From an uncultured delta proteobacterium (GTDB lineage Bacteria; Desulfobacterota; Desulfobulbia; Desulfobulbales; Desulfocapsaceae): a stretch of 64,000 nucleotides of DNA. Shown piece by piece: positions 2 to 43,583 of this stretch. The notes beneath the pieces are model-generated. The model was not told where the DNA came from. It worked only from the letters and a program-made list of their open reading frames with translations, and searched no databases. The translations under genes and the position numbers were made by a program. The number at the start of each line of letters is the position of its first letter. The stretch's first letter is position 1. Where the stretch lies: positions 43,223 through 107,222 of the forward strand of contig CAIQWD010000027.1 in assembly GCA_903875445.1 (NCBI GenBank). Direction: 5' to 3'.

Positions 2-1474
2 TGCGGCACCGGCGGCATGCTGGCCGAGGCGCAGAATTGGATTCGCGCCCACAACGAACAGGCCACCGTCAAGGTCTACGGCCAGGATTACAACCCGCGC
101 TCCTATGCCGTCGCCGCCTCCGACCTGCTCATCAAGGGTCACAAGGACAGCCGCATCGAGTACGGCAATACCCTGACAAACGACCAGTTTCCCGACATGC
201 GCTTCGACTATCTGCTGGCCAATCCCCCCTTTGGTGTTGATTGGAAAGGGGAAAAGAAGGAAATCGATCGCTGGCCCAACTTTCGCGGCTACAACGGCAA
301 GCTGCCGCGCATCAACGATGGCGCGCTGCTGTTTTTGATCCATATGATTGCTAAGTTCCAACCCTGGCAGACCGGCAATCGCAATCTGCCCGGTTCGCGG
401 GTGGCTATCGTCTTCAATGGCTCGCCGCTGTTCACCGGCGGCGCGGGCAGTGGCGAGAGCGAAATCCGTCGCTGGATCATTGAAAACGACTGGCTCGAAG
501 CCATTGTCGCCCTGCCCGAGCAGATGTTCTACAACACCGGCATCGGCACTTTCATCTGGGTGCTCAGCAATCGCAAGGAGCAACACCGCGAAGGAAAAAT
601 CCAGCTGATCGATGCACGTGAACGCTTCACGCCGATGAAACGCAGCCTCGGCAACAAACGCCGCTATCTCGATGAAGCCGCCATCGCCACGCTTACCCGC
701 GAGCATGGCGCGTTGGAAGATTCGAAGACCAGCAAAGTTTTCGCCAATACCGATTTCGGCTACCGGCGTATTACCGTCCATCGCCCGCTGCGCTTGCGTT
801 TCCAGATGATTCGGGAGAATAAAGAGCGGTTTCTCGACACTTGCCCGGAACTGCTGGATGCCGTTCTGGCGCTGGAAGAAAGATTGGGCGCCGAACCCTA
901 TTTCAATTGGAATACCACCTGGGAAATGGTGCAGAAAACAGTCAAGGCCCTGCCGGATGACGAGGTCGGCTGGACAGCGGGCGCCAAAGGCACAGCCCAA
1001 AAAAAACTGTTCCGCGAGGTATTCACCGAGGTCGACCCGGAAGCAGAGCCGGTCATCGCCAAACAGTATAAGAATGAGAAGCTCGATATCGCCAACCTGT
1101 TTCCCGGCCAGAACCTGCCTCGCGAGCTGACACCTTCCCAGCTGCAAGCGGTGCTGGGCTTCTATGCCCAGGGAAAAGGCAAACTCATCGAATATGAGCC
1201 CGACCCGGCTCTCAAAGACAGTGAAAACATTCCCCTGAAGGAAGACATCGTCAGGTACTTCCTGCGTGAGGTCCGGCCCTATGTGGCTGATGCCTGGATC
1301 GATCGGGCAACGCTCGACGAACAGGATGGCGGTATCGGTAAGGTTGGCTACGAGATCAACTTCAACCGCGTGTTTTTCCAATACCAGCCGCCCCGCCCGC
1401 TGCACGAGATCGACCGGGAGCTTGCCGCTGTCGAGCAGCGGATTATGGATTTGCTGCGGGAGGTGACCGAGTGA
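2..1474 (+). CDS. hsdM: Type I R-M methyltransferase subunit, 5'-truncated by the window edge
   Basis: The frame from nt 2 reads CGTGGML (end of SAM-binding motif I). It has catalytic motif IV LANPPF, NGSPLFTGGAGSGES and a C-terminal GYEINFNR.F typical of HsdM. Confidence 0.95.
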   Translation, partial: CGTGGMLAEAQNWIRAHNEQATVKVYGQDYNPRSYAVAASDLLIKGHKDSRIEYGNTLTNDQFPDMRFDYLLANPPFGVDWKGEKKEIDRWPNFRGYNGKLPRINDGALLFLIHMIAKFQPWQTGNRNLPGSRVAIVFNGSPLFTGGAGSGESEIRRWIIENDWLEAIVALPEQMFYNTGIGTFIWVLSNRKEQHREGKIQLIDARERFTPMKRSLGNKRRYLDEAAIATLTREHGALEDSKTSKVFANTDFGYRRITVHRPLRLRFQMIRENKERFLDTCPELLDAVLALEERLGAEPYFNWNTTWEMVQKTVKALPDDEVGWTAGAKGTAQKKLFREVFTEVDPEAEPVIAKQYKNEKLDIANLFPGQNLPRELTPSQLQAVLGFYAQGKGKLIEYEPDPALKDSENIPLKEDIVRYFLREVRPYVADAWIDRATLDEQDGGIGKVGYEINFNRVFFQYQPPRPLHEIDRELAAVEQRIMDLLREVTE

Positions 1475-2583
1475 ACCTGCTGCTTTCCGACATCCGCGAC
1501 CTGATCCTCTCTGCCCGCCGGGCGGCGGTCCATTCCATTGATCTGCTTCAGGTGTTGACCAATTTTGAGATCGGCCACCGCATCATTGAGCATGAACAGC
1601 AGGGTGCGGAACGGGCCGAATACGGCAAAGCACTTCTCAAGGATTTGTCAACGGAACTCACAGCGGAATTTGGCAGAGGGTTTTCCCGTTCCAATTTGGA
1701 ATATATGCGAAAATTCTATTTGGCCTATAAAGACAGGGCATTGGCAATTTCCCAGATGCCATCTGGGAAATTGGCGGATGAACGAAAAGGTCAGCCACCA
1801 TTTTGCGAATCCTCTAAGGCAGAACTTCTGCTTGTCGCGGGCAAAGCTGACCGGCCGTTCTCTTTGAGCTGGTCGCAATATGTGTTTTTGGTTTCGATTA
1901 ATGATCTCGATGAGCGCCGGTTCTACGAAATTGAAGCATCGGCTAATGGCTGGACCTTGCCGGAACTGAAACGCCAGTTCAACACCGGCCTCTATGAACG
2001 TCTGGCCCTCAGTCTGGATAAAGACGGTATCCGCAAGCTGGCGGCGGAAGGGCAGATCGTCAGCCGCCCAGAAGACCTGCTGAAAGATCCCTACGTTCTG
2101 GAATTTCTCGGGCTCGATGAAAAGACCAGATATTCCGAATCAGACCTGGAAACTGCCATCATCAACAAGATCGAACACTTCCTGCTCGAACTGGGCAAGG
2201 GTTTTCTCTTTGAGGCCCGGCAGAAACGCTTCACCTTCGACGAGGAGCATTTCTTTGTCGATCTGGTCTTCTATAACCGCCTGCTGCGCTGCTATGTGCT
2301 GCTTGATCTGAAGATCGGCAAGCTCAATCATCAGCACCTCGGGCAGATGCAGATGTATGTCAACTATTTCGACCGCTTCGTTAAGCTGGCAGACGAAAAC
2401 CCGACTATCGGTATAGTCCTGTGCAAAAAGAAACATGACGCATTGGTGGAAATCACCTTGCCCAGGGACGCAAATATCCATGCCAAGGAATATCAACTCT
2501 ATTTGCCCGATAAGGAGCTGTTGCGCCGGAAGTTGGAGGAGTGGGGTGAAGAGGTGGATACTCGAAAAGAGGTGGGGGAATGA
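1471..2583 (+). CDS. YhcG/DUF1016-family PD-(D/E)xK nuclease-domain protein
   Basis: GRGFSRSNL..MRKFY, LSWSQY, KDPYVLEFLG, FVDLVFYNRLLRCYVLLDLK and GQMQMYVNYFDR. GTGA overlap with the hsdM stop. Confidence 0.9.
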   Translation: MNLLLSDIRDLILSARRAAVHSIDLLQVLTNFEIGHRIIEHEQQGAERAEYGKALLKDLSTELTAEFGRGFSRSNLEYMRKFYLAYKDRALAISQMPSGKLADERKGQPPFCESSKAELLLVAGKADRPFSLSWSQYVFLVSINDLDERRFYEIEASANGWTLPELKRQFNTGLYERLALSLDKDGIRKLAAEGQIVSRPEDLLKDPYVLEFLGLDEKTRYSESDLETAIINKIEHFLLELGKGFLFEARQKRFTFDEEHFFVDLVFYNRLLRCYVLLDLKIGKLNHQHLGQMQMYVNYFDRFVKLADENPTIGIVLCKKKHDALVEITLPRDANIHAKEYQLYLPDKELLRRKLEEWGEEVDTRKEVGE

Positions 2584-3920
2584 GTGCAAATCAGAGCAAG
2601 CGAGATTGGCAAGCAGTTCCTCTTCGTTATGTGTGTCAACTCAACCCGCCGGTGGATTTCGGTGCATTTGGAGAAGATGATGAGCTGACCTTTTTGCCCA
2701 TGGATAGGGTCAAGAGTGGTTACTTCATTCCCAATACCGACAAATTTTCAAAATACGCCTCTTCCTATAATTCTTTCGAGGAAGGGGATATTGTTTTGGC
2801 CAAAGTTACACCATGCTTCGAAAATGGTAACATTGCGATTGGTGAGAATCTTTTAGGGGGCAAGGGCTTTGGCAGTTCGGAATTGTTCGTGATTCGGGCA
2901 ACAGGTGTTGCTCGCAAATTCCTCTTCTATTACTTTCAATCTTCTACGTTCAAACAGGAAGGGGAAGCATCAATGACCGGTGCCGGTGGACTCAAGCGGG
3001 TATCACCAGACTTGCTCCGCCGGCATTATTTACCCTTGCCAGCAGTCAAAATCCAACACCAAATCGCCGACTACCTCGACCTTGAAACCGCCCGCATCGA
3101 TGAGCTGGTAGCGGAAAAACTGCACATGCTGGCCCTGCTGGAAGAAAAGCGAGTCGCCCTCATCAGCCGCGCTGTTACCCGCGGACTCAACCCCGACGCC
3201 CCCCTTAAACCCTCCGGCCTCGACTGGCTGGGGGATATTCCGGCGCATTGGGAAGTGATGCCAATTAAGTATGTTGCGACGGTTGGCAACGGATCAACGC
3301 CAGCCGTCGACAATGTGGACTATTGGGATGAAAACGGCTTTCCTTGGCTAAATAGCTCCGTTGTCAACGCCGATTATGTGAAGGAACCATCAAGGCATGT
3401 TACAGCCAAGGCGCTGACGGAGTGCCATCTGCCAACAATAAATCCCCCCGCCGTTTTGGTTGGCATTACGGGCCAAGGCAAAACTCGTGGGATGGCTTCG
3501 ATATTAACGATTGAGGCAACGATCAATCAGCATCTTGCGTTCGTAAAACCAAGGGGCGAAAGGATAACGGCAGAATATCTGCGTTACGTCCTCGTACGAG
3601 TATACTCTTTTCTCAGAAGCGACAGTGATGGCTCGGGGAGCACGAAAGGAGCCATTACATGTGAACAACTTGCGAACTTTCGTATCACGCTGCCTCCTGA
3701 AAATGAGCAAGTTCATATTGTTCGGCAAATTCAAGAAGGCAAGCGTGTCATGGATCGTATACAACAAGAACTTAACAGCTCAGTCAGACTTCTCAAGGAA
3801 CGCCGTGCCGCCTTGATTACAGCAGCCGTCATTGGGCAAATCAATTTCAGTCCAGACAGTAAAAATTGTAGAAGAATTGAAAATCGAGCAATCGAGGTCA
3901 ACGGGGATTTTCCTTGTTAA
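2580..3920 (+). CDS. hsdS: Type I R-M specificity subunit
   Basis: Two variable TRDs separated by the conserved helix IADYLD..TARIDEL...LLEEKR.ALIS.AVTRGL.P...LKPSG..WLG.IP.HW. C-terminal LKERR.ALITAAV.GQI. ATGA overlap with the upstream gene. Confidence 0.93.
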   Translation: MSANQSKRDWQAVPLRYVCQLNPPVDFGAFGEDDELTFLPMDRVKSGYFIPNTDKFSKYASSYNSFEEGDIVLAKVTPCFENGNIAIGENLLGGKGFGSSELFVIRATGVARKFLFYYFQSSTFKQEGEASMTGAGGLKRVSPDLLRRHYLPLPAVKIQHQIADYLDLETARIDELVAEKLHMLALLEEKRVALISRAVTRGLNPDAPLKPSGLDWLGDIPAHWEVMPIKYVATVGNGSTPAVDNVDYWDENGFPWLNSSVVNADYVKEPSRHVTAKALTECHLPTINPPAVLVGITGQGKTRGMASILTIEATINQHLAFVKPRGERITAEYLRYVLVRVYSFLRSDSDGSGSTKGAITCEQLANFRITLPPENEQVHIVRQIQEGKRVMDRIQQELNSSVRLLKERRAALITAAVIGQINFSPDSKNCRRIENRAIEVNGDFPC

Positions 3921-3963
3921 TTGCCTTGCCATACCGGTGAAAACTCTTTAAAGTTCCGATCTT

Positions 3964-4758
3964 ATGCACATGACCACCACACACTACACCTTGGGAGCAG
4001 CCCCCGTTACGGGAGCGGGCTTGGGTATATCGCCCACCGACCTCGACACTGCACTGTCCGGTCCGGTTGCTGCGGTGGTCTTTGACGATGCGGGCAATGA
4101 CAAAATAGCCGCGCTGCTCGGTGGCGTGGCCGATACGGAATTTACCCAGAACAATCTGGATGTGCTCCTGAAACATGAGCGCGAACCAGAAGACTGGCGC
4201 GTGGGCGAGGCACTGGCAGAATGCTATTTGTCGGAATGCAGGAGCTGCCATTTCCCCTGGCCCGATGGTCGCGATGAACGCAAGCGCGGTTCGAGTCTGC
4301 CGGGCGCGGATTTGGTGGGCTTTCACCGCGATGGCGAGGCTGATCACTTCGCCTTTGGCGAAGTGAAAACCTCAGCCGAACAATCTTATCCGCCCGGTGC
4401 CGCCTACGGACGACACGGATTAAAGCAACAGATGGAGGATTTGCGTGACCGGCGGGAGATTCGGGATGATCTGGTTAAATATCTTGCCCACCGTGCGGTG
4501 AATGCCACTTGGAAAGATCGTTTCCAGTCCGCCGCCGGAGTGTATTTGCGAGATCCTGGAGATGTGCGGATTTTTGGCCTATTGGTGCGAGATGTGCCGC
4601 CGAACGAGGATGACTTGCGTGCTCGGGTGAATGGGCTTGCGCAATACTGTCCAGCCTCGACGGTCATTGAGTTGCTGGCACTCTATCTCCCTCAAGGTCG
4701 AATTGCTACCTTGGGAGTACAGGTCGTGACATCTCGACGAAATGGAGGTGCCCGATGA
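3964..4758 (+). CDS. HamA-like (DUF1837-like) PD-(D/E)xK nuclease
   Basis: Motifs VGEALAECYL, GADLVGF and FAFGEVKTS match the GE / G.D / GE.K pattern of HamA-type nucleases. ATGA-coupled to the downstream helicase. Confidence 0.65.
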   Translation: MHMTTTHYTLGAAPVTGAGLGISPTDLDTALSGPVAAVVFDDAGNDKIAALLGGVADTEFTQNNLDVLLKHEREPEDWRVGEALAECYLSECRSCHFPWPDGRDERKRGSSLPGADLVGFHRDGEADHFAFGEVKTSAEQSYPPGAAYGRHGLKQQMEDLRDRREIRDDLVKYLAHRAVNATWKDRFQSAAGVYLRDPGDVRIFGLLVRDVPPNEDDLRARVNGLAQYCPASTVIELLALYLPQGRIATLGVQVVTSRRNGGAR

Positions 4759-7700
4759 GCCTGCGCAAAGAAGAACTGGATCGTGTGGACAATCACTGGG
4801 CCGTCCTCGCAGTAGGTGTCGAAGAGCGTGAACGTGGTCTGGAAGTTGCCAACGCGCGGCTGGTCGCCAAAGCGGTGGGCAGACAAATGCGCCTCGCTTT
4901 CGAAGAGCGGGCCAGCGACGGGGATTTACTGCACCGTCTCGCGATGGCCTACGAGATGGCCGCCATCGAAGGCCTGACGGCACTCCTCAACCTTTCCACC
5001 GCAGAGGACGATCGGCGGCAACAATGTGTCGCCGGAGCGTGGCGCGCCTTTGAACTAAGGCGCTTGTTCGAAGTTCCCGAGGCTGTTGAAGAACGCATCT
5101 TTCATGTCCTCCATTTATCGGCACTGGCTTATTGCGGCGATCGTTGGTCGGATATCCGGCGTTGGTATGTGGAGAATGGATGCAGCATCGTGGAGCTCTC
5201 CGCAGCGGATCAGCCATGGCACTACCGTTTGCTCTTCCGGCTCTTCGACTGTTGGGTGCGTCTTTTTCGCAAAAAAGGATGGGACGATCTCGACCGCATC
5301 CGGGAAATTGTGGCCGGGTTGCGGGAGGATCAGCGGCAATACGAGCGGACTTCCCTTGACAGTGGCTCTAATGAGCAGGACCGGGCCATGGCGTTGAGGC
5401 TGATTGCATTCTATAACTGGGCCAAGGCCACGGAACTGCTAGCTAAGTATGTATTGCAGGGCGAGCCAAGGGGCATCAACGCGCTCCTCGACAAACATTT
5501 CGAGGCGGCGGCGGAAGCGGCGATCGCTGCGGACGACGCTCAACTGGAAATCCTCATGCGGTGGCTGCATGCGACCGCCCGGCAGATGATTTCCGGTTCG
5601 CTCTGGTGGGTTGCCCACTCAATCAATTCACGGGTCACTCGTTTTGTCGGGTCTTCCACCAAACATCAGGCCATGTTTGAGCTGTTGCCGCCGCAAAGGG
5701 CGGCCTTGCAGGAACAGGGGCTGCTCGATCAAGCGGCCACGGCGGTGGTTATCGATCTGCCGACGTCAGGAGGAAAGACCCTGCTGGCTCAATTCCGCAT
5801 TCTCCAAGCTCTCAATCAATTCGCCGAAGAAAGTGGTTGGGTTGCCTACGTGGTGCCTACTCGTGCCCTCAGCGCCCAAATCACCCGCCGCTTGCGCCGC
5901 GATTTTACGCCAATCGGCGTGCGCGTGGAGCAACTGACCGGTGCTGTTGAGATTGATGCCATCGAAGCGGAGATGCTCTCAGCGCAGGCGCGTGGCGATG
6001 AGCGCAGCTTCGACGTGCTGGTGGCGACACCGGAAAAGTTACAGCTGGTGATCCGAAATAAAAAGGTGCAGCGTCCGCTCGCGTTGATCGTGATGGACGA
6101 GGCCCACAACATGGAGAGCAAGTCGCGCGGAATGCGTATTGAGCTGCTGTTGGCTACGGTCAAACAGGAGAGCAATCAGGCGAATTTTCTGCTATTGATG
6201 CCGTTTGTTGAAAAAGCGGAGGCACTCGCACGATGGCTTGCCAATGATGTTGGCGGCGGTCGCTCGATCAGTCTCGGCACCAGTGTCTGGAGACCCAACG
6301 AGCGCATTGTCGGTATGTTTCGTGCTGAGGCAGACGATAACCAGAGAGCAGGGTGGCGGCTCCAATATCAAACTTTGGTCACAACACCGAAAACGATTCA
6401 TCTGGCTGGAATCCATCAAGTAGGCGGGATAAAGCCGCTCGACTTAGCCAAATCCAAGTTGATCAGGGCAAATGGGGAGCAACAGGGCTTTGGCCTCCAG
6501 GCAGCTGCAATGGCCACAGTCTTTTCCTCGCGAGGCACAAGTATCGCAGTCGGGGGAACAATTCCCTCGGCATGGTCCATGGCACGGGAGGCAGCGAAGA
6601 AACTGCCACCAATCGACACACCATCAGAGCGTATTCAGCTCGTCCAAAAGTTCCTTGCAGCGGAGATCAGCCCTGACTTCGAGTTAGTTGAGATGCTTGC
6701 CCGAGGGGTTGCCGTGCATCATGCGGGCCTTTCCGACGAGATGAGAGCGCTTGTCGAATGGTTGGCGGAGGAAGGCGATATCCGCGTGCTTTGCGCGACG
6801 ACTACGCTGGCTCAGGGCATCAATTTCCCGGTTTCATCGGTATTTTTGGCTACAACATCAATGAAATCGCGGAAGTTTCCGTATCAAGTTGATATGGTAC
6901 CCCGCGAATTTTGGAATCTGGCTGGGCGTGCGGGCCGCATGAATCAGGACAGCGTTGGAGTTGTTGGTATCGCCGAGGCGAACCGGACAGAAGAGATCGT
7001 TCGTTTCGTGAAAGAAGCTACGGGGGAACTGGTGTCACGCTTGGTGATTGTCGTGGCAGAACTGGATGCGGCCAATTCGCCCGATGAACTCTCCGCAGTA
7101 ATTCAACAAGAGCAATGGGAAGACTTCCGCTGCTATGTGACCCACCTCGTTCATGAGATCGGCAACTTGGAACGCGTTCTTTCGAGTACTGAGTTGTCCC
7201 TACGCAACACCTTTGGCTACCGTGTCCTTCAAGAAAGCGTCGAAGGTCGTACTCGTGCCCAAAAATTGATCGAAGCCACCAAACAATACGCGCGGAAAAT
7301 TTCGGCTAATCCCGGCCAAGTGGCGATGGCCGACATGACCGGCTTTTCGTTCGAGGGGGTCGGGAGAGCATTGAGCGGAGTCAGCGCTCTTGAGCGGAAG
7401 CTTACGGCCAATGATTTTTCCGCTGAACGACTTTTTGGAAACGACGGCGGCATGGCTGACTTTTATGGCATCATGCTCCGCATTCCTCAACTTGCACGAA
7501 ACTTGGACGAACTCACGACCTCCGGCACTGACAACCGTCAACTGGCGGACATAACCAAAGCTTGGGTGGAAGGGCGGAGTCTTCGGGAAATCGCCAGAAC
7601 CTATTTCCAAGTGGACGGCGACGCCACTCTTGCGATTACGAAGGCATGTCGCGCCATCTATCGGAACCTTGCCAACAACGGGACGTGGGGGTTATCCGCG

Positions 7701-8036
7701 CTCAGTCGGCTATCGGGAATAGATTTCGAAATTCTTACGCCTCAGCAGAAGCGGCAAATCGATCTACTCCCGGCGATGATTTACCACGGCGTGAAGACAG
7801 AGGAAGGTGTCCTCATGCGCATGAATGGCGTTCCCCGCTCGATTGCCGAGCGAATGGGCGAACGTTATCAACAAATAGGCAACGCGGATGGCGTTGGATC
7901 TGGCATCCAGAAAGTCCGGCAATTTCTCGGTTCGGCGGATATTGAAACCTGGAATCGGGCGCGTCCCAGCAACGCCCCTCTCTCCGGCCGAGAATATAAG
8001 GAAGTCTGGAAAGTTATTTCTGGTGACGAGCGATAA
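4755..8036 (+). CDS. Ski2-like SF2 DEAH helicase (HamB-like), 1093 aa, with a ~300-aa N-terminal helical region
   Basis: LPTSGGKT (motif I), VPTRALSAQ (Ia), VATPEK (Ib), MDEAHN (II), HHAGLS, ATTTLAQGINFP (V) and NLAGRAGR (VI). Confidence 0.9.
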   Translation: MSLRKEELDRVDNHWAVLAVGVEERERGLEVANARLVAKAVGRQMRLAFEERASDGDLLHRLAMAYEMAAIEGLTALLNLSTAEDDRRQQCVAGAWRAFELRRLFEVPEAVEERIFHVLHLSALAYCGDRWSDIRRWYVENGCSIVELSAADQPWHYRLLFRLFDCWVRLFRKKGWDDLDRIREIVAGLREDQRQYERTSLDSGSNEQDRAMALRLIAFYNWAKATELLAKYVLQGEPRGINALLDKHFEAAAEAAIAADDAQLEILMRWLHATARQMISGSLWWVAHSINSRVTRFVGSSTKHQAMFELLPPQRAALQEQGLLDQAATAVVIDLPTSGGKTLLAQFRILQALNQFAEESGWVAYVVPTRALSAQITRRLRRDFTPIGVRVEQLTGAVEIDAIEAEMLSAQARGDERSFDVLVATPEKLQLVIRNKKVQRPLALIVMDEAHNMESKSRGMRIELLLATVKQESNQANFLLLMPFVEKAEALARWLANDVGGGRSISLGTSVWRPNERIVGMFRAEADDNQRAGWRLQYQTLVTTPKTIHLAGIHQVGGIKPLDLAKSKLIRANGEQQGFGLQAAAMATVFSSRGTSIAVGGTIPSAWSMAREAAKKLPPIDTPSERIQLVQKFLAAEISPDFELVEMLARGVAVHHAGLSDEMRALVEWLAEEGDIRVLCATTTLAQGINFPVSSVFLATTSMKSRKFPYQVDMVPREFWNLAGRAGRMNQDSVGVVGIAEANRTEEIVRFVKEATGELVSRLVIVVAELDAANSPDELSAVIQQEQWEDFRCYVTHLVHEIGNLERVLSSTELSLRNTFGYRVLQESVEGRTRAQKLIEATKQYARKISANPGQVAMADMTGFSFEGVGRALSGVSALERKLTANDFSAERLFGNDGGMADFYGIMLRIPQLARNLDELTTSGTDNRQLADITKAWVEGRSLREIARTYFQVDGDATLAITKACRAIYRNLANNGTWGLSALSRLSGIDFEILTPQQKRQIDLLPAMIYHGVKTEEGVLMRMNGVPRSIAERMGERYQQIGNADGVGSGIQKVRQFLGSADIETWNRARPSNAPLSGREYKEVWKVISGDER

Positions 8037-8196
8037 GGTTTGTACGGCGCTGGATGTGTCGCCCCCACTGGCCAATGCGCTGATCCGCGAGTTCGTGCAG
8101 CTTGGCATCCTGCAGGAAGTCACCGGACAGCAGCGGGGACGGGTTTTTGTCTTCCAACGTTACTTAAGCCGTTACTTAAGCCTCTTCGTTATTTAA
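8031..8196 (+). pseudogene. C-terminal HTH remnant of a Fic-family protein
   Basis: Reads KVCTALDVSPPLANALIREFVQLGILQEVTGQQRGRVFVFQRYLSRYLSLF, like the tail of Fic-HTH proteins. No start and no Fic HPFxxGNGR motif. Confidence 0.6.
8158..8181 (+). repeat. 12-bp tandem duplication CGTTACTTAAGC x2
   Basis: Seen directly. It gives RYLS-RYLS in the Fic remnant frame. Confidence 0.9.
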
Positions 8197-8422
8197 AATT
8201 GGCGACGTTTCTTTAATTAAGGCAGCTAGTAAATTAAAGTTGAGCAAAGGAATCATTGCCATTAAACAGACCAGCGAGGCCGTGTAGCTCGCTAAGGGCT
8301 ATCTACAAACATTCGTCCCAAAACAAGCAACCGTGAACGAGTGGTCTTCCCAAAAAAGATGGAGGCGTGAGGTACGTTACTCACGGTGCAAAGGTCACCT
8401 TGCAAATACAGCTTTTTGTCCC

Positions 8423-8483
8423 TTGACCTGCATAAGCACCAATGGTACACATAAAGTAATAAAAAATGTAACCTTATGTGGAC
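8423..8483 (+). promoter_or_regulatory. Putative abiE promoter with overlapping inverted-repeat operator
   Basis: TTGACC at 8423-8428. Imperfect inverted repeat GTACACATAAAG (8445-8456) / CCTTATGTGGAC (8472-8483), 10/12 match, just upstream of the antitoxin start. AbiEi proteins autorepress through promoter inverted repeats. Confidence 0.45.
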
Positions 8484-8490
8484 TATGCCC

Positions 8491-9039
8491 ATGCAACCGA
8501 TGAAGGAATTAGCCCGACTTCTGGAGCACCTGGCTAGCGCAGAGCAGTATCTCTTTTCGCCGGATGATCTGCGTAGCGCCTTGCCGGAAGCAAGTCCGGG
8601 CGCGTTCAAGGCTTTGCTCTGTCGGGCGGAGAAGGCCGGGCTGCTGCGACGGGTCTGCCGGGGAATCTATCTGTACCCTCGGGTGGCCTACCCGGCCGGG
8701 CTGGTCCTGTTTCATGCGGCGGCAAAACTGCGGGCGGATGCCTTCAATTACCTGAGTCTTGAGACGGTGTTGAGTGATGCCGGGGTGATATCACAGATCC
8801 CCCTGAACTGGGTTACTCTGATGTCTTCGGGGCGCAGCCATATCGTAGACTGCGGGGATTTCGGTCATATCGAATATATCCACAGCAAACGCCGGTCGGC
8901 GAATGTCGCCGACCGGTTGAACTATGATCAAGACTGTCGTCTGTGGCGGGCCTCGGTGTCTCTTGCCCTGCTGGATATGAAGTTGACCCGGCGCAGTATG
9001 GACCTGATCGATTGGGAGGTGGCCGATGAACATGTTTGA
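8491..9039 (+). CDS. Type IV TA antitoxin, AbiEi family (likely start MQPM at 8491; ORF opens at 8476)
   Basis: wHTH-type LRRVCRGIYLYP, then YLSLETVLSDAGVISQIP..W.T.MSSGRS and C-terminal SMDLIDWEVA. Confidence 0.8.
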   Translation: MQPMKELARLLEHLASAEQYLFSPDDLRSALPEASPGAFKALLCRAEKAGLLRRVCRGIYLYPRVAYPAGLVLFHAAAKLRADAFNYLSLETVLSDAGVISQIPLNWVTLMSSGRSHIVDCGDFGHIEYIHSKRRSANVADRLNYDQDCRLWRASVSLALLDMKLTRRSMDLIDWEVADEHV

Positions 9040-9112
9040 GCAGTTGGTCGAACAAGCATATCTCGTCGGTTTTGTCGCTGATGAATGCGAACGGGTGCGA
9101 CGGGAAGCCTGA
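9026..9112 (+). pseudogene. AbiEii toxin remnant (28-aa mini-ORF, apparent large internal deletion)
   Basis: SD GGAGGT at 9015-9020. ATG overlaps the antitoxin 3' end. Translates MNMFEQLVEQAYLVGFVADECERVRREA*, resembling the toxin N-terminus (M.LF..LV..A) joined to a toxin-like C-terminal helix. Confidence 0.6.
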
Positions 9113-9150
9113 AGGATGAATACGATATGAAGAACCAGGGGGAGTAGGGC

Positions 9151-12100
9151 ATGAAACAGACCAGCGAAGCCGCCTTTGAAACCGCCATCGAGGCCGTATT
9201 GCTGGCCGATGGGTATCAGAAGCTAGGGTCCAGCGAGTTCGACCGCGAGCGGGCAATCTTTCCTGAAGTGGCGTTGGATTTCATTCGCGCAACCCAGGCC
9301 AAAACCTGGGACAAACTGCAAACCCTGCACGGCGAGCAGACCGGCGACAGAGTGCTGGAAGCACTCTGTAAATGGCTGGACACCTACGGGGTGTTAGCTA
9401 CGCTGCGCCATGGCTTCAAGTGTTTCGGCAAGACTCTGCGCATCGCCTTCTTCCGCCCGGCGCATGGCCTCAACCCAGAGCTTGAGGCGCGCTATCAGGC
9501 CAACCGGCTGGGCCTGACACGGCAACTGCATTTCAGCCCCAAGAATGAAAAGTCGCTGGATGTGGTGCTGTCGGTCAACGGCGTGCCGGTGGTGACGCTG
9601 GAACTGAAGAACCCGCTTTCCGGCCAGTCGTTGGCCAATGCCATCCACCAATATCGCCATGACCGCGATCCGCGTGAGCTGATCTTTCAGTTCACCAAGC
9701 GCACGTTGGTGCATTTTGCCGTGGACACGGAAGAGGTGCACATGACCACCCGCCTGGCCGGCGCCGGCAGCCATTTCTTACCCTTCAACCGGGGTAATCA
9801 GGGGGGCGCCGGCAATGAACCCGACACGGCGGGCCGCAACTACAAGACGGCCTATCTGTGGGAAGAGGTCTTGCAACGTGACAGCCTGCTCGATCTGCTG
9901 GCCCGCTTTCTCCATCTGGACGTGCAGGAGAAGATTGCCGAAGACGGCAAGAAGATGCGCAAGGAAACCATGATCTTCCCGCGTTATCACCAGTTGCAGG
10001 CCGTACGCCGGATGGTTGCGGCAGCGGGTGTCGAAGGCGTGGGACACACCTACCTGGTCGAGCATTCGGCGGGGAGCGGCAAGAGCAACACCATCGGCTG
10101 GCTGGCGCATCGTCTTTCCTCGCTGCATAACGACAATGACCAGCGGATTTTCGACAGCGTGGTGGTGATCACCGATCGGGTGGTGCTGGATCGGCAGTTG
10201 CAGAATACCATCTACCAGTTCGACCACCGCCAGGGCGTGGTGCAGAAGATCGACGAAGACTCACGCCAGTTGGCCGAGGCACTGGAATCCGGGGTGCCGA
10301 TCGTTATCACCACCTTGCAGAAGTTTCCATTTGTGTCCGGGCAGTTGATGAAGCTTTCGGAGGAGCACGGTGGTCCCTCTCGGGCGTCCTGCCCTCCGGG
10401 ACATAAGCCCATCCCTGGGCAAAAAAAAGGTTCCAGCCATTTGCCGATGCGCCAATATGCGGTGATTATCGATGAGGCCCACAGTTCACAGTCCGGCGAA
10501 ACCGCCACTGAACTAAAAGGTGTTTTGGGTGGTGCTCAGCTGCGTCAATTAGCCCGGCAAATGGCCGAGGAAGAAGGCAAAGTTGAATTGGAGCGCCTGT
10601 TCCGTTCCATGGCCAAACGTGGTCACCAACCGAACATGAGTTTCTTCGCCTTCACCGCCACGCCCAAACACAAAACCCTGGCCATCTTCGGCAGGGGCGG
10701 TGAACCCTTCCACCGCTATACCATGCGGCAGGCCATCGAAGAGGAATTTATCGAGGATGTGCTGGCCAGCTATGTGACCTACAAGACCTATTACAAACTC
10801 ATCAAGAAAGCGGAGGACGATCCCAACGTCGAGCGCAAGAAGGCGGCTCGGGCGCTCGCCCGCTTTATGCGACTGCACCCGCACAATATCGGGCAAAAGA
10901 CCGAGGTGATGGTCGAGCATTTCCAGCAGCATACCCGGCATAAGATCGGTGGTCGCGCCAAGGCCATGGTGGTAACCGGCTCGCGGCTGGAGGCGGTGCG
11001 TTACAAGCAGGAGTTTGATCGCTACATAGGCGAGAAGGGCTATCCCATCAAGAGTCTGGTGGCCTTTTCCGGCATTGTTGAAGATGATAAGCTGCCCGAG
11101 AAGACCTACACCGAGGTTGCAATGAACTCCGGGGTAAAAGAGAAGGAGCTGCCCGATACCTTTGCCAAGCCCGATTACCGTGTGTTGCTGGTTGCCGAGA
11201 AATATCAGACCGGTTTTGACCAGCCGTTGTTGCATACCATGTACGTTGACAAGCGGTTGGCGGGCATTCAGGCGGTGCAGACTTTGTCACGGTTGAATCG
11301 GACGCATCCGCTGAAGGACGATACCTTTGTCCTCGATTTCGTCAATGACCCGAGCGAGATTCAAGAGGCCTTTCGTCAGTACTACGAAGGCTCGGTGATG
11401 GGCGAGCAAGTGGACCCGGACAAGCTCTATGAGGTGAAAGCAGAGCTTGATGCCTCGGGCATGTATCTGCAACCCGAGGTGGACGACTTTACTGCCATCT
11501 TCTTTGCTCCCAAACGCCGCCAGAGCCCGTCCGATCACAAAGCCATGAATGCGATCCTTGATCAGGCGGTGGCGCGGTTTCGGCAGTTGCAAATTACCGA
11601 AGAGGAGGAGGCCGAATTGTGGCGCGGCAAGATGCAGGCCTTTCGTAATCTCTACAGTTTTTTGAGCCAGGTGATACCCTATCAGGACAGTGATCTGGAG
11701 AAGTTATTCACCTACTTGCGGCATCTCGCCTTGAAATTGCCAAAGCGTAAGAGCGGCCCCGGCTATCAATTCGATGAAGAGGTTGAACTCGATTACTACC
11801 GGTTACAGAAGATCAGTGAAGGTTCCATCAGTTTAAGCGAAGGCTACGCCAAACCGCTCGATGGGCCGCGCGAGGTGGGCACGGGCGAGGTTCGCGAAGA
11901 GTACGTGACACTGTCACGCCTGATCGACATCATCAATGAGCGCTTTGGCAGCGAGATGAATGAAGCGGATCAGCTCTTTTTCGATCAAATCGCCGAGGCG
12001 GCAAGTAGGAATGAATCACTGCAAAAAGCTGCGGGAGTCAATTCTCTTGATAAATTTCAACTGGTGTTCCGGCAGGTTCTCGAATCGTTGTTTATTGAGC

Positions 12101-12246
12101 GTATGGATCTTAATGAAGGGCTGTTTACCGATTATATGAGTAAACCTGAAATGCAGGAGCTTGTATCCAAGTGGCTGGGAACCCAGGTGTATGATCGATT
12201 GGCCGGGGTTGAAAAACGGCAACATTCGGAATTACTTGCTAAGTGA
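9151..12246 (+). CDS. hsdR: Type I R-M restriction/motor subunit
   Basis: Nuclease motif DVVLSVNGVPVVTLELKN, PRYHQL, HSAGSGKS (Walker A), IIDEAHSSQ, FTATPK, KYQTGFDQP and QTLSRLNR. Confidence 0.95.
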   Translation: MKQTSEAAFETAIEAVLLADGYQKLGSSEFDRERAIFPEVALDFIRATQAKTWDKLQTLHGEQTGDRVLEALCKWLDTYGVLATLRHGFKCFGKTLRIAFFRPAHGLNPELEARYQANRLGLTRQLHFSPKNEKSLDVVLSVNGVPVVTLELKNPLSGQSLANAIHQYRHDRDPRELIFQFTKRTLVHFAVDTEEVHMTTRLAGAGSHFLPFNRGNQGGAGNEPDTAGRNYKTAYLWEEVLQRDSLLDLLARFLHLDVQEKIAEDGKKMRKETMIFPRYHQLQAVRRMVAAAGVEGVGHTYLVEHSAGSGKSNTIGWLAHRLSSLHNDNDQRIFDSVVVITDRVVLDRQLQNTIYQFDHRQGVVQKIDEDSRQLAEALESGVPIVITTLQKFPFVSGQLMKLSEEHGGPSRASCPPGHKPIPGQKKGSSHLPMRQYAVIIDEAHSSQSGETATELKGVLGGAQLRQLARQMAEEEGKVELERLFRSMAKRGHQPNMSFFAFTATPKHKTLAIFGRGGEPFHRYTMRQAIEEEFIEDVLASYVTYKTYYKLIKKAEDDPNVERKKAARALARFMRLHPHNIGQKTEVMVEHFQQHTRHKIGGRAKAMVVTGSRLEAVRYKQEFDRYIGEKGYPIKSLVAFSGIVEDDKLPEKTYTEVAMNSGVKEKELPDTFAKPDYRVLLVAEKYQTGFDQPLLHTMYVDKRLAGIQAVQTLSRLNRTHPLKDDTFVLDFVNDPSEIQEAFRQYYEGSVMGEQVDPDKLYEVKAELDASGMYLQPEVDDFTAIFFAPKRRQSPSDHKAMNAILDQAVARFRQLQITEEEEAELWRGKMQAFRNLYSFLSQVIPYQDSDLEKLFTYLRHLALKLPKRKSGPGYQFDEEVELDYYRLQKISEGSISLSEGYAKPLDGPREVGTGEVREEYVTLSRLIDIINERFGSEMNEADQLFFDQIAEAASRNESLQKAAGVNSLDKFQLVFRQVLESLFIERMDLNEGLFTDYMSKPEMQELVSKWLGTQVYDRLAGVEKRQHSELLAK
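10382..10428 (+). repeat. Twin mini-hairpin segment in frame within hsdR
   Basis: GGGC-GTCCT-GCCC (10382-10394) and GCCCA-TCCC-TGGGC (10407-10420), followed by A8. It encodes the Pro/Gly-rich stretch GPSRASCPPGHKPIPGQKK. Confidence 0.5.
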
Positions 12247-12300
12247 AGATAAAGACGTTGAAAATGACGTCGAGCAACTCATGAAGGAGGCGGTACAGGC

Positions 12301-13058
12301 ATGAGTAGGGAAAAAGCTGCGAGTTTTCGCCCAACCGCCATGGGCCAGTTTCTAGTCTACGAGGCTGAAGATGGCCGCATTAAGATCGATGTGCGGTTGG
12401 AGAATGAGACGGTCTGGTTGACTCAACGCTTGATGGCCGAGCTGTTCCAGAAGGATGTGCGGACGATCAACGAACATATCCAGAATGTCTATGAAGAGCG
12501 CGAACTGGAGCCGGAGGCAACTATCCGGAAATTCCGGATAGTTCAAAAAGAGGGGGCACGGGACGTCACTCGGATGGTTGATTTCTTCAAGACCGTGCAG
12601 AACAAGATGCACTGGGCGATCACCGGCAAAACCGCGGCTGAAATTGTCCACAGTCGTGCCGATGCCGACAAGGCCAACATGGGGTTGACCAACTGGCGCG
12701 ACGCGAAGGTACGCAAACAGGACGTAGCCATCGCCAAAAACTATCTGGACGCAGGTGAACTGGCGGCACTGAATAATCGGTGGAGCAATACCTGATCTTC
12801 GCCGAAGGCCAGGCCATGCGCCGCATCCCCATGCATATGGATGACTGGCTGAAAAAGCTCGACGCCTTTTTGAATATCAACGACCGTGATATCCTTTGCC
12901 ATGCCGGCAAAATCTCCCATGAGATGGCGCGGCTGGCAGTGGAAGACGAATATGAGAAATTTCACCGCAAACAGATTGCCGAACTCGACCGGATGGGCAA
13001 TGAATTTGACAGATTGGCCCAACAACTGCCTGGTGGCAAACGGGGGAAACAAGAATGA
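12301..13058 (+). pseudogene. rhuM: RhuM-family protein, internally deleted and frameshifted
   Basis: The N-terminus (ETVWLTQRLMAELFQKDVRTINEHI) runs directly into FFKTVQNKMHWAITGKTAAE. The frame breaks near 12778 and continues as VEQYLIFAEGQAMRRIPMHM..W..KLDAFL...ISHEMA. Confidence 0.8.
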
Positions 13059-42563: not shown

Positions 42564-43583
42564 CTACTTAAAAGGAGGTGAATACATCAGACCGCCATTA
42601 TTCCACAGGGCGTTTAGGCCGCGTTTGAGCATCAGCGGGGTGTTGACGCCGACGTTACGTTCAAAGACCTCGCTGTAGTTGCCGACCTGCTTGACAATAT
42701 TGTAAGCCCATTTCTCGTCAAGGCCGAGGGACTTGCCGTTACCCGGGGTAACGCCGAGGAACCGCATGACAGCAGGGTTGGTGCTGGTCATCATTTCGTC
42801 GACGTTCTTCGAGGTTATGCCCAGTTCTTCCGCCTCGATCATCGCCAGGACCACATAGTTGACGACATCCTTCCATTGGTTGTCGCCATGCCGGACAGCT
42901 GGGGCGAGAGGTTCCTTGGAGATGATTTCCGGGAGGATGGTATAGTCGGCGGGATTGGGGGCTACCGCGCGGATACCGGCCAGCTGAGAGGCATCGGAGG
43001 TCAGACAATCGCAACGACCGGCGAAGAAGGCCTTGGCCAATTCGGCATTGTTCTCGATAACCACGGGATTCATCTTCATCTTGTTGACTCGGAAATAATC
43101 GGCGACATTCTGCTCGGTGGTGGTGCCGGGGAGGACGCAGACGGAGGCGCCATCCAGTTCCTTGGCGCTTTTTACCCCGAGTTTGTTGGGAATCAGGAAG
43201 CCCTGGCCGTCATAGTAGTTGACCTGAACGAAGTCGAGACCGAGGTCGGTGTCACGACTAAGGGTCTGGGTGGCATTACGGGTGAGGACATCAATCTCGC
43301 CGGATTGCAGAGCGGTGAAACGGGTTTTGGTGGTCAGCGGGGTAAATTTCACCTTTTCCGCATCGCCGAAAATGGCGGCGGCAATCGCTCTGGCGGTATC
43401 GATATCAAGGCCTTTCCATACGCCTTTTTCATCGGGTTTGCCGAAGCCGAAAAGGTCGCTGTTGACGCCGGTCTGAACAAAGCCCTTGGTCTTGACAGCA
43501 TCAAGGGTGCCGGAAATCGCAACGCCTGCGGTCAGACAAAATGCGACCACTACTGCTGGGACAATTCGCTGAAAATGTGCCAT
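42564..43583 (-). CDS. General L-amino-acid-binding protein (AapJ/BztA-like)
   Basis: RFTALQSGEIDVL.RN, YYDGQGFL, ISKEPLAP.VRHGD.QW and GNYSEVFERN. Confidence 0.92.
   Translation of the reverse strand: MAHFQRIVPAVVVAFCLTAGVAISGTLDAVKTKGFVQTGVNSDLFGFGKPDEKGVWKGLDIDTARAIAAAIFGDAEKVKFTPLTTKTRFTALQSGEIDVLTRNATQTLSRDTDLGLDFVQVNYYDGQGFLIPNKLGVKSAKELDGASVCVLPGTTTEQNVADYFRVNKMKMNPVVIENNAELAKAFFAGRCDCLTSDASQLAGIRAVAPNPADYTILPEIISKEPLAPAVRHGDNQWKDVVNYVVLAMIEAEELGITSKNVDEMMTSTNPAVMRFLGVTPGNGKSLGLDEKWAYNIVKQVGNYSEVFERNVGVNTPLMLKRGLNALWNNGGLMYSPPFK

Follow-up and report, generated by a model that had tools for sequence, protein, structure and literature searches.

Junction scars in a predicted type I restriction-modification operon suggest exchange of embedded defence genes between hsd loci

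This study concerns a 64,000-nt stretch (the window) of the genome of an uncultured Desulfocapsaceae bacterium, positions 43,223 to 107,222 of contig CAIQWD010000027.1 (C27), and the predicted type I restriction-modification (R-M) operon at its left end, which carries other defence genes as cargo. The genome is a 117-contig draft that is 95% complete. Genes were called from a listing of open reading frames (ORFs) and from Pfam, PADLOC and NCBIfam scans, and coordinates are window positions unless prefixed C27 or C66, both contigs of this genome. Ten elements lie on the + strand, in the order given by an earlier reading of the sequence (the original prediction): hsdM, a DUF1016/YhcG gene, hsdS, a nuclease gene, a helicase gene, a Fic tail, abiEi, an abiEii stub, hsdR and a broken rhuM. 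The elements that the original prediction took to be intact, namely the R-M core, the DUF1016 gene, the nuclease-helicase pair and the antitoxin gene, are all full length.

The content of the three Hsd proteins is that of a predicted type I R-M system. The window edge cuts the 5' end of the methyltransferase gene hsdM (2-1474; PF02384, E = 3.8e-38; PADLOC MTase_I, 2.6e-164), leaving the 3' 490 codons inside. The gene starts 659 nt upstream, and the whole gene (C27 42564-44696) encodes a 710-aa protein with both the DPACGTG and the NPPF motif of an N6-adenine methyltransferase. The specificity subunit, HsdS (2580-3920; PADLOC Specificity_I, 1.6e-119), is an intact 446-aa protein with two target-recognition domains, seen as two stretches of PF01420, and covers positions 23-439 of the 448 in the Specificity_I profile. 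HsdR (9151-12246) is an intact 1031-aa restriction/motor subunit (PF04313, PF18766, PF04851, PF22679) with an N-terminal nuclease domain and a superfamily 2 (SF2) motor, whose DEAH motif is at residue 441. All core hsd genes are full length compared with more than 60 relatives.

Same-strand genes matching defence families are embedded in this operon: PDC-S02, PDC-M23A/B, AbiEi and PDC-S05. The start of the DUF1016 gene (1471-2583) overlaps the hsdM stop; it encodes an intact PD-(D/E)xK protein with DUF1016_N and YhcG_C domains (PADLOC PDC-S02, E = 2.3e-135; PF17761 covered over 1-137 of 137 positions and PF06250 over 2-156 of 157). Downstream of hsdS, an intact gene for a putative 264-aa HamA-like PD-(D/E)xK nuclease (3964-4758; PADLOC PDC-M23A, PDLC04529, E = 4.5e-98) overlaps an intact gene for a predicted 1093-aa HamB-like helicase of the Ski2/Hel308-type SF2 group (4755-8036; PDC-M23B, PDLC04531, 1410 bits, profile 4-1059 of 1060). 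The domain scan also labelled the helicase DEAD/ResIII.

A search with HsdR returned 66 related loci (numbered with the prefix L), most at 80-94% protein identity, from Desulfobacterota, Gamma- and Betaproteobacteria, Cyanobacteria, Acidobacteriota, Lentisphaerota and others. Judged by this identity of hsdR, the hsdM/S/R family is spread across phyla. The window HsdR has a 17-aa in-frame insert, GPSRASCPPGHKPIPGQ (10372-10428, residues ~408-424), just before the DEAH motif. It is common to the window, L001 and L003 (a Sedimenticola isolate) and absent from seven other relatives, so we regard it as a transferable variant and not a private lesion.

Each of the three damaged cargo genes was compared with an intact relative. 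All that is left of a SoFic-type gene (377 aa when whole) is its final 48 codons at 8038-8196, matching at 80% aa identity the 3' end of the intact fic gene that sits between hsdS and hsdR in L002. This tail has neither a start codon nor a Fic motif, the Fic_N and Fic domains being at residues 39-229 of the intact L002 protein. It begins 2 nt past the helicase stop. The same remnant, with the same tail junction (94% identity), is present in L039, a sister locus from a Desulfobulbaceae metagenome-assembled genome (MAG). A 12-bp tandem duplication (4 codons, 8158-8181) in the window tail is absent from L039 and L002.

The antitoxin/regulator gene abiEi (8476-9039; NF047376, 183.8 bits against a cutoff of 150, profile 3-172 of 172; PADLOC AbiEi, 9.1e-60) is intact and now an orphan. 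Between the window and L039, its ratio of nonsynonymous to synonymous divergence (dN/dS) is 0.046/0.259 (~0.18). Alignment to the intact 287-aa AbiEii of L039 shows that abiEii (9026-9112) is reduced to 28 codons, the first 11 and the last 17, reading MNMFEQLVEQA joined to YLVGF...REA and the stop, with 786 bp gone in frame. The nucleotidyltransferase region found in the L039 protein (PF08843, E = 1.8e-29) is deleted in the window, which no longer encodes an AbiE type IV toxin. Beyond hsdR, a rhuM pseudogene (PDC-S05; 12301-12795 and 12780-13058) matches the profile over positions 9-82, resumes at 185-250 and has its tail in a different frame. A tblastn search with an intact RhuM and direct reading place an in-frame loss of ~93 codons at ~12585 (...RMVDFF joined to KTVQNK, profile 83-184 missing) and a -1 frameshift of 1 nt at ~12780, which leave no uninterrupted RhuM domain. 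The original prediction put the damage to Fic, AbiEii and RhuM down to deletion. All three are broken; a deletion accounts for abiEii, and a deletion and a frameshift for rhuM. The tail of fic, which L039 has too, is a scar of displacement.

We used about 50 of the related loci for a comparison of cargo. Their ORFs were called, hsd genes were labelled by BLAST, the remaining ORFs were clustered and the cluster representatives annotated. Genes of the family are mostly chained by overlapping stop and start codons, and cargo occurs in three slots. The hsdS-hsdR gap (slot 2) holds at least 10 cargo types across these loci. Septu PtuA/PtuB fills it in roughly half of the loci; other contents are SoFic, 600-665-aa Schlafen/AlbA_2-HATPase_c_4 proteins, a helix-turn-helix (HTH)-peptidase M78 protein with DUF4411, an unannotated 442-aa protein, a 23S-IVP-like protein, an OLD-like ATPase, zeta-toxin-like pairs, insertion sequence (IS) elements or, in L001, nothing. 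The hsdM-hsdS gap (slot 1) is empty in about half and otherwise carries DUF1016, RhuM, Schlafen-like proteins or AAA_21 with DUF4276. Fic (8 loci), McrB-like proteins, RhuM and Wadjet JetA are found after hsdR (slot 3).

In the window, slot 1 holds the DUF1016 gene, slot 2 the HamA/HamB-like pair, the Fic tail, a ghost of the hsdR 5' end, abiEi and the abiEii stub, and slot 3 the dead rhuM. Only L039 among the ~50 loci matches this cargo set, with the same junctions and an intact AbiEii. The three closest hsdR relatives all differ in slot 2, which is empty in L001 (93% identity), carries the unknown 442-aa gene in L049 (91%) and carries PDC-M23 and AbiE in L039 (90%). The cargo-turnover hotspot that the original prediction placed at the hsdS-hsdR gap is thus borne out by the tabulation it had proposed, of the genes between hsdS and hsdR in homologous loci: cargo varies and the flanks are conserved. 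Its restriction of the hotspot to that gap did not hold, however, as the hsdM-hsdS gap and the site after hsdR vary too.

Two observations on the relatives concern individual cargo genes. The 442-aa protein, which has no Pfam or PADLOC hit, fills slot 2 in L004 (8670-9998) and L049; one of these two loci is from a Desulfofustis MAG with an hsdR 91% identical to that of the window. In L045 (1678-3159), which comes from the same MAG as L039, hsdR is followed by a DUF3375 protein instead of RhuM, which we take to be Wadjet JetA.

Synonymous divergence (dS) between the window and L039 varies more than tenfold from segment to segment. It is 0.77 for hsdM, 0.68 for hsdR, 0.47 for DUF1016 and 0.26 for abiEi, and falls to 0.18 for M23B, 0.08 for M23A and 0.05 for the C-terminal half of hsdS. 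The N-terminal half of hsdS (to ~3200) is unrelated to that of L039 (dS 1.38), while the C-terminal half lies inside the recently shared block. The low dS from the second half of hsdS through PDC-M23 implies that this block was exchanged much more recently than its flanks, with its left break in hsdS at ~3050-3200.

A second type of evidence comes from duplicated hsd gene ends. At 8259-8350 lies a decayed copy of the hsdR 5' end, with ATT in place of ATG and an internal deletion of 24 nt. Its 24-nt core (8259-8282) differs from the true hsdR start at 3 positions, where chance would be expected to give no such match. The ghost starts 62 nt past the Fic stop; Fic-hsdR spacing in L002 is ~64 nt, as estimated from ORF and match coordinates. 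Moreover, from the Fic tail through the spacer to the ghost (8259-8350), the window aligns base for base to the stretch of L002 that runs from Fic across its spacer into the hsdR start, which implies an ancestor with the order hsdS-fic-hsdR and entry of the abiE module within the first ~115 nt of hsdR. The corresponding ghost in L039 is ~103 nt long.

Ghosts of this kind recur in the family. Copies of the hsdR 5' end, 34-343 nt long, lie to the left of different cargo in L011, L023, L028, L039, L046, L048 and L064. Three of these ghosts, in L011, L028 and L064, run straight into a copy of an hsdS 3' end whose stop overlaps the cargo ATG; from this hsdS copy it follows that the incoming hsdS3'-cargo-hsdR piece came from another hsd operon of the family. 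Mirror-image ghosts, of the hsdM 3' end, flank slot 1 cargo in L007, L017 and L064. Because L028 is from an isolate genome, such scars are not solely artefacts of MAGs. The original prediction had concluded that cargo turns over, which the comparison supports, but had made no use, in that finding, of these ghost gene ends, which are evidence on the mechanism.

Taken together, the mosaic ages, the ancestral junction and the recurring duplicated gene ends argue for host recombination anchored in the hsd genes. We consider it probable that the locus is a hotspot whose cargo is swapped between hsd loci in this way and that its broken genes are scars of replacement and decay. Cargo would move between hsd loci of the family by host recombination, with conserved hsd sequences as the anchors. 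Two homologous crossovers would give a clean swap; if one end were homologous and the other joined illegitimately, a duplicated hsd gene end would be left over. Pieces of the type seen in L011, L028 and L064 may have come in by homologous recombination in hsdR and illegitimate joining on the left. For the window, the scars suggest an ancestor with the order hsdS-fic-hsdR, into which a segment with an hsdS 3' end, abiEi, abiEii and hsdR would have been joined inside the resident hsdR 5' end, producing the ghost. The HamAB-like pair would then have displaced the first 329 codons of fic, abiEii would have lost its 786 bp in frame in the window lineage only, and rhuM would have decayed separately.

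Homology-facilitated illegitimate recombination, described for naturally transformable bacteria, offers a parallel to the proposed process. Here too, one junction would lie in conserved homology (hsdR or hsdM) and the other would be non-homologous, the anchor carrying foreign DNA in. The process differs from that model in being read from natural scars alone.

Several points weigh against our interpretation. The mechanism is read only from scars, and integration of a circular intermediate via short hsdR homology would leave similar duplications, as would an unrecognised recombinase acting in trans. Saturation or codon usage could inflate the dS contrasts, although a tenfold range is hard to explain in that way. 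ORF calling in the relatives was crude and their cargo was annotated via cluster representatives only. In addition, the loci compared are mostly from MAGs, and some of the frameshifts and fragments counted as broken may be assembly errors.

The original prediction also held that cargo turns over without an integrase, and none is present among the genes annotated within ~10 kb on each side in the window genome; on this ground we rejected, for this locus, an integrase- or transposase-driven island and an integron-like cassette array. No integrase occurs among the annotated cargo of the family either. Insertions resembling IS elements or REP (repetitive extragenic palindrome)-associated transposases are occasional in the relatives (L013, L020, L028, L047 and L064) and none borders cargo; those in L013, L047 and L064 were judged by eye and not by a scan. 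In L013 (5676-6212) and L064 (2282-2818), a 178-aa ORF (MEYRRAFIPGGSFFF...MPDHLHSIW) lies in or next to DUF1016, flanked by direct repeats of 170-290 nt. By eye, it looks like a candidate REP-associated tyrosine transposase.

The remnants may also have been kept because they are useful. On this explanation, in-frame stubs and tails would preserve translational coupling or avoid polarity, and the promoter and repressor function of the orphan AbiEi would control hsdR. We give this a reasonable chance, though clearly a minority one, and it would complement rather than exclude an origin of the remnants as recombination scars. The abiEii stub fits this explanation: its start overlaps the abiEi stop, and it ends, in frame, 38 nt before the hsdR ATG. 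In L038, L043 and L049, what is left of RhuM is a C-terminal tail that abuts hsdS, and at four of the five ghost junctions the hsdR reading frame continues, unshifted, to an hsdS-type stop overlapping the ATG of the cargo. The only frameshift is in rhuM, which has no operon gene downstream, whereas the deletions upstream of hsdR are in frame, and the dN/dS of abiEi (~0.18) points the same way. However, a count of four in frame out of five exceeds chance only slightly (P ~0.045 in our own binomial calculation), and a 440-nt non-coding gap (8036-8476) already breaks the coupling chain. A sigma-70 promoter scan of 7900-9250 predicted no promoter, a result that is uninformative on the transcription of hsdR or abiEi. 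The in-frame stubs and ghost junctions hint at selection against polar effects. In general, stubs tend to be gene ends that abut the next hsd gene, which appears to be a more economical pattern than a purge of toxins.

Such a purge was proposed in the original prediction: costly cargo of the toxin type (Fic, AbiEii, RhuM) would be lost selectively, and the R-M core and non-toxic cargo would stay. All three damaged genes do come from families that are generally counted among toxins or abortive-infection effectors. Loss of abiEii is clean and lineage-specific and has left an antitoxin under purifying selection, and L001, the locus with the closest hsdR, likewise has a truncated RhuM beside it, cut at another position. 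We nevertheless consider selective purging unlikely. Truncation of Fic 2 nt past the stop of the incoming helicase is common to L039, as expected of a replacement scar left as a by-product of cassette arrival. A rough tally of broken cargo in the relatives (RhuM, 6 of 10; DUF1016, 6 of ~15; SoFic, two events against six intact copies; Septu, rarely) does not split toxins from non-toxins, broken DUF1016 being as common as broken Fic. Both nucleases, HamA-like and DUF1016, are intact although they are effectors of broadly the same sort. In addition, a second type I operon of this genome, on C66, retains an undamaged RhuM of 347 aa. For a toxin-antitoxin pair we would expect the toxin to be lost first, since loss of the antitoxin first should be harmful, so a broken toxin beside an intact antitoxin needs no special selection. 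Finally, three events carry no statistical power.

That the breaks are artefacts of assembly or binning, with the genes intact in the organism, is very improbable and was rejected: the window is from a 117-contig draft and, elsewhere in the locus, single-base indels appear in two further assemblies, but the losses are hundreds of bases long and in frame, the Fic tail junction also occurs at 94% identity in L039, and the identical locus with the same junctions of all three breaks is present at 99.99-100% identity in at least five independently assembled metagenome contigs (L067-L071) from different JGI and ENA samples, which establishes the breaks as real. The two indels are an added C in a C run of hsdS in L071 (window 3190) and a missing A near the end of the HamA-like gene in L069 (window 4670); within the same population, they are either real heterogeneity or assembly errors.

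The island as a whole spans 14.3 kb (C27 42206-56552), from a small XRE-type HTH gene and hsdM through the dead rhuM. Two congeners (G017:C308 and G007:C33) have ~1.2 kb at this site, between nifA and a PAS histidine kinase gene, and by this comparison the hsd island is an insertion or replacement relative to them. The ~1.2 kb replaced holds a gene for a 371-373-aa homocitrate-synthase-like (nifV-like) protein, whose best match elsewhere in the window genome (95% complete) is only 27% identical. The 73-aa HTH gene (C27 42340-42561, window ~-880 to -660) ends just before the hsdM start and is kept at the same position in ~10 of 37 related loci.

The second type I operon of the genome (C66 95634-104812, - strand) is unrelated to that of the window. 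Its order is hsdM, DUF1016 (373 aa), hsdS, an unknown 350-aa protein, RhuM and hsdR, with overlapping stops and starts throughout, and its DUF1016 gene is intact.

We interpret the nuclease-helicase pair as a divergent Hachiman-type system, the nuclease half by fold and the helicase half by sequence. The helicase matches HamB models at E = 1e-54 and HamB 8vx9_B at E = 2.5e-24 over residues 305-737, as expected of a HamB-type protein. For the 264-aa protein, no sequence match was found in Pfam up to E = 10, by phmmer against the Protein Data Bank (PDB), or with a profile of 38 homologues against the PDB, and HamA was found by fold search only. The AlphaFold2 model (mean predicted local distance difference test, pLDDT, 86) has HamA 8vx9_A as its top PDB match in Foldseek (E = 1.1e-5, probability 1.0, template modelling score 0.53), and D116, E133 and K135 are invariant across the 38 homologues. 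As in Hachiman (8vx9, 8vxy), a ~260-aa PD-(D/E)xK protein is followed by an overlapping gene for a ~1100-aa Ski2/Hel308-like helicase that matches HamB by sequence, and the E-x-K of the window protein is placed as E138/K140, the residues mutated in entry 8vxy. The window nuclease subunit resembles HamA in predicted fold and not in detectable sequence similarity, and PADLOC keeps PDC-M23 as a separate untested candidate. The pair also occurs outside hsd operons, and the literature we searched held no mention of PDC-M23. The intact parts of the locus would provide layered anti-phage defence, predicted from family membership, in which HsdMSR restriction is joined by the Hachiman-like and DUF1016 nucleases.

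A classical model for such an arrangement is EcoprrI-PrrC, in which an anticodon nuclease encoded between hsdS and hsdR is the embedded effector that backs up restriction. The window resembles it in that an abortive-infection effector is placed between the hsdS and hsdR genes of a type I system. It has no PrrC, however, and its cargo is likened to PrrC by position alone and not by binding to, or masking by, the Hsd complex.

Embedding of defence genes, and the hsdS-hsdR gap as a possible recombination hotspot, have already been published. Payne et al. 2024 ('guilt by embedding', 10.1101/2024.01.29.577857) derived PDC candidates from genes embedded in type I R-M, BREX and DISARM systems. As in their type I operons, same-strand genes are nested among hsdM, hsdS and hsdR in the window, and its cargo includes their candidates PDC-S02 (DUF1016), PDC-S05 (RhuM) and PDC-M23. 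In one study, E. coli with PDC-S05 was protected from T4, T5 and T7 (10.1101/2024.09.26.614923). Pseudogene-containing systems were left out by Payne et al., and mechanisms of cargo exchange were not addressed (10.1101/2024.01.29.577857). In contrast to their set, the window locus and its relatives carry scars (gene tails, ghost ends and mosaic dS) that bear on mechanism.

The RptR-HsdM-HsdS-DarTG2-HsdR island of enteropathogenic E. coli (EPEC) has DarTG2 between hsdS and hsdR, behind a small HTH gene, and the site was termed 'a potential recombination hotspot' (Nucleic Acids Res 2025, PMC12255303). The window is alike in having a small HTH gene directly upstream of hsdM and a toxin-antitoxin-type module between hsdS and hsdR. 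It is unlike the EPEC island in that its cargo is a Hachiman-like pair with AbiE remnants rather than DarTG2, the toxin partner being deleted, and in that its 73-aa HTH protein is a generic XRE-type protein: among PDB hits listed at E = 0.01 or better none was named RptR, and the best were generic XRE-type proteins. What the present analysis adds is the well-documented set of junction scars, which indicate how cargo may move.

New anti-phage systems are currently being drawn from defence genes embedded in restriction operons. The arrival route of these genes was left unexplained by Payne et al. and in the RptR paper (PMC12255303), and the window locus with its relatives offers a clear case at the level of sequence. 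The same operon backbone is found with at least 10 cargo sets, and leftover gene ends point to integrase-free transfer of cassettes out of one hsd operon into another. The locus also cautions against reading broken toxin genes as the result of selective purging. Two practical leads are the Hachiman-like PDC-M23 pair and the 442-aa protein, which is a candidate new embedded defence gene. More generally, there is a nearly even prospect that the conserved ends of hsdM, hsdS and hsdR act as portable homology arms, by which cassettes hop between type I operons across phyla through one-sided, homology-anchored illegitimate recombination, while selection keeps only scars that preserve translational coupling down to hsdR. 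Such scars may include in-frame stubs, gene tails and mini-ORFs in which the HsdR N terminus is fused to the HsdS C terminus. If this is true, ghost gene ends in general would record, in datable form, the order of arrival of embedded defence systems.

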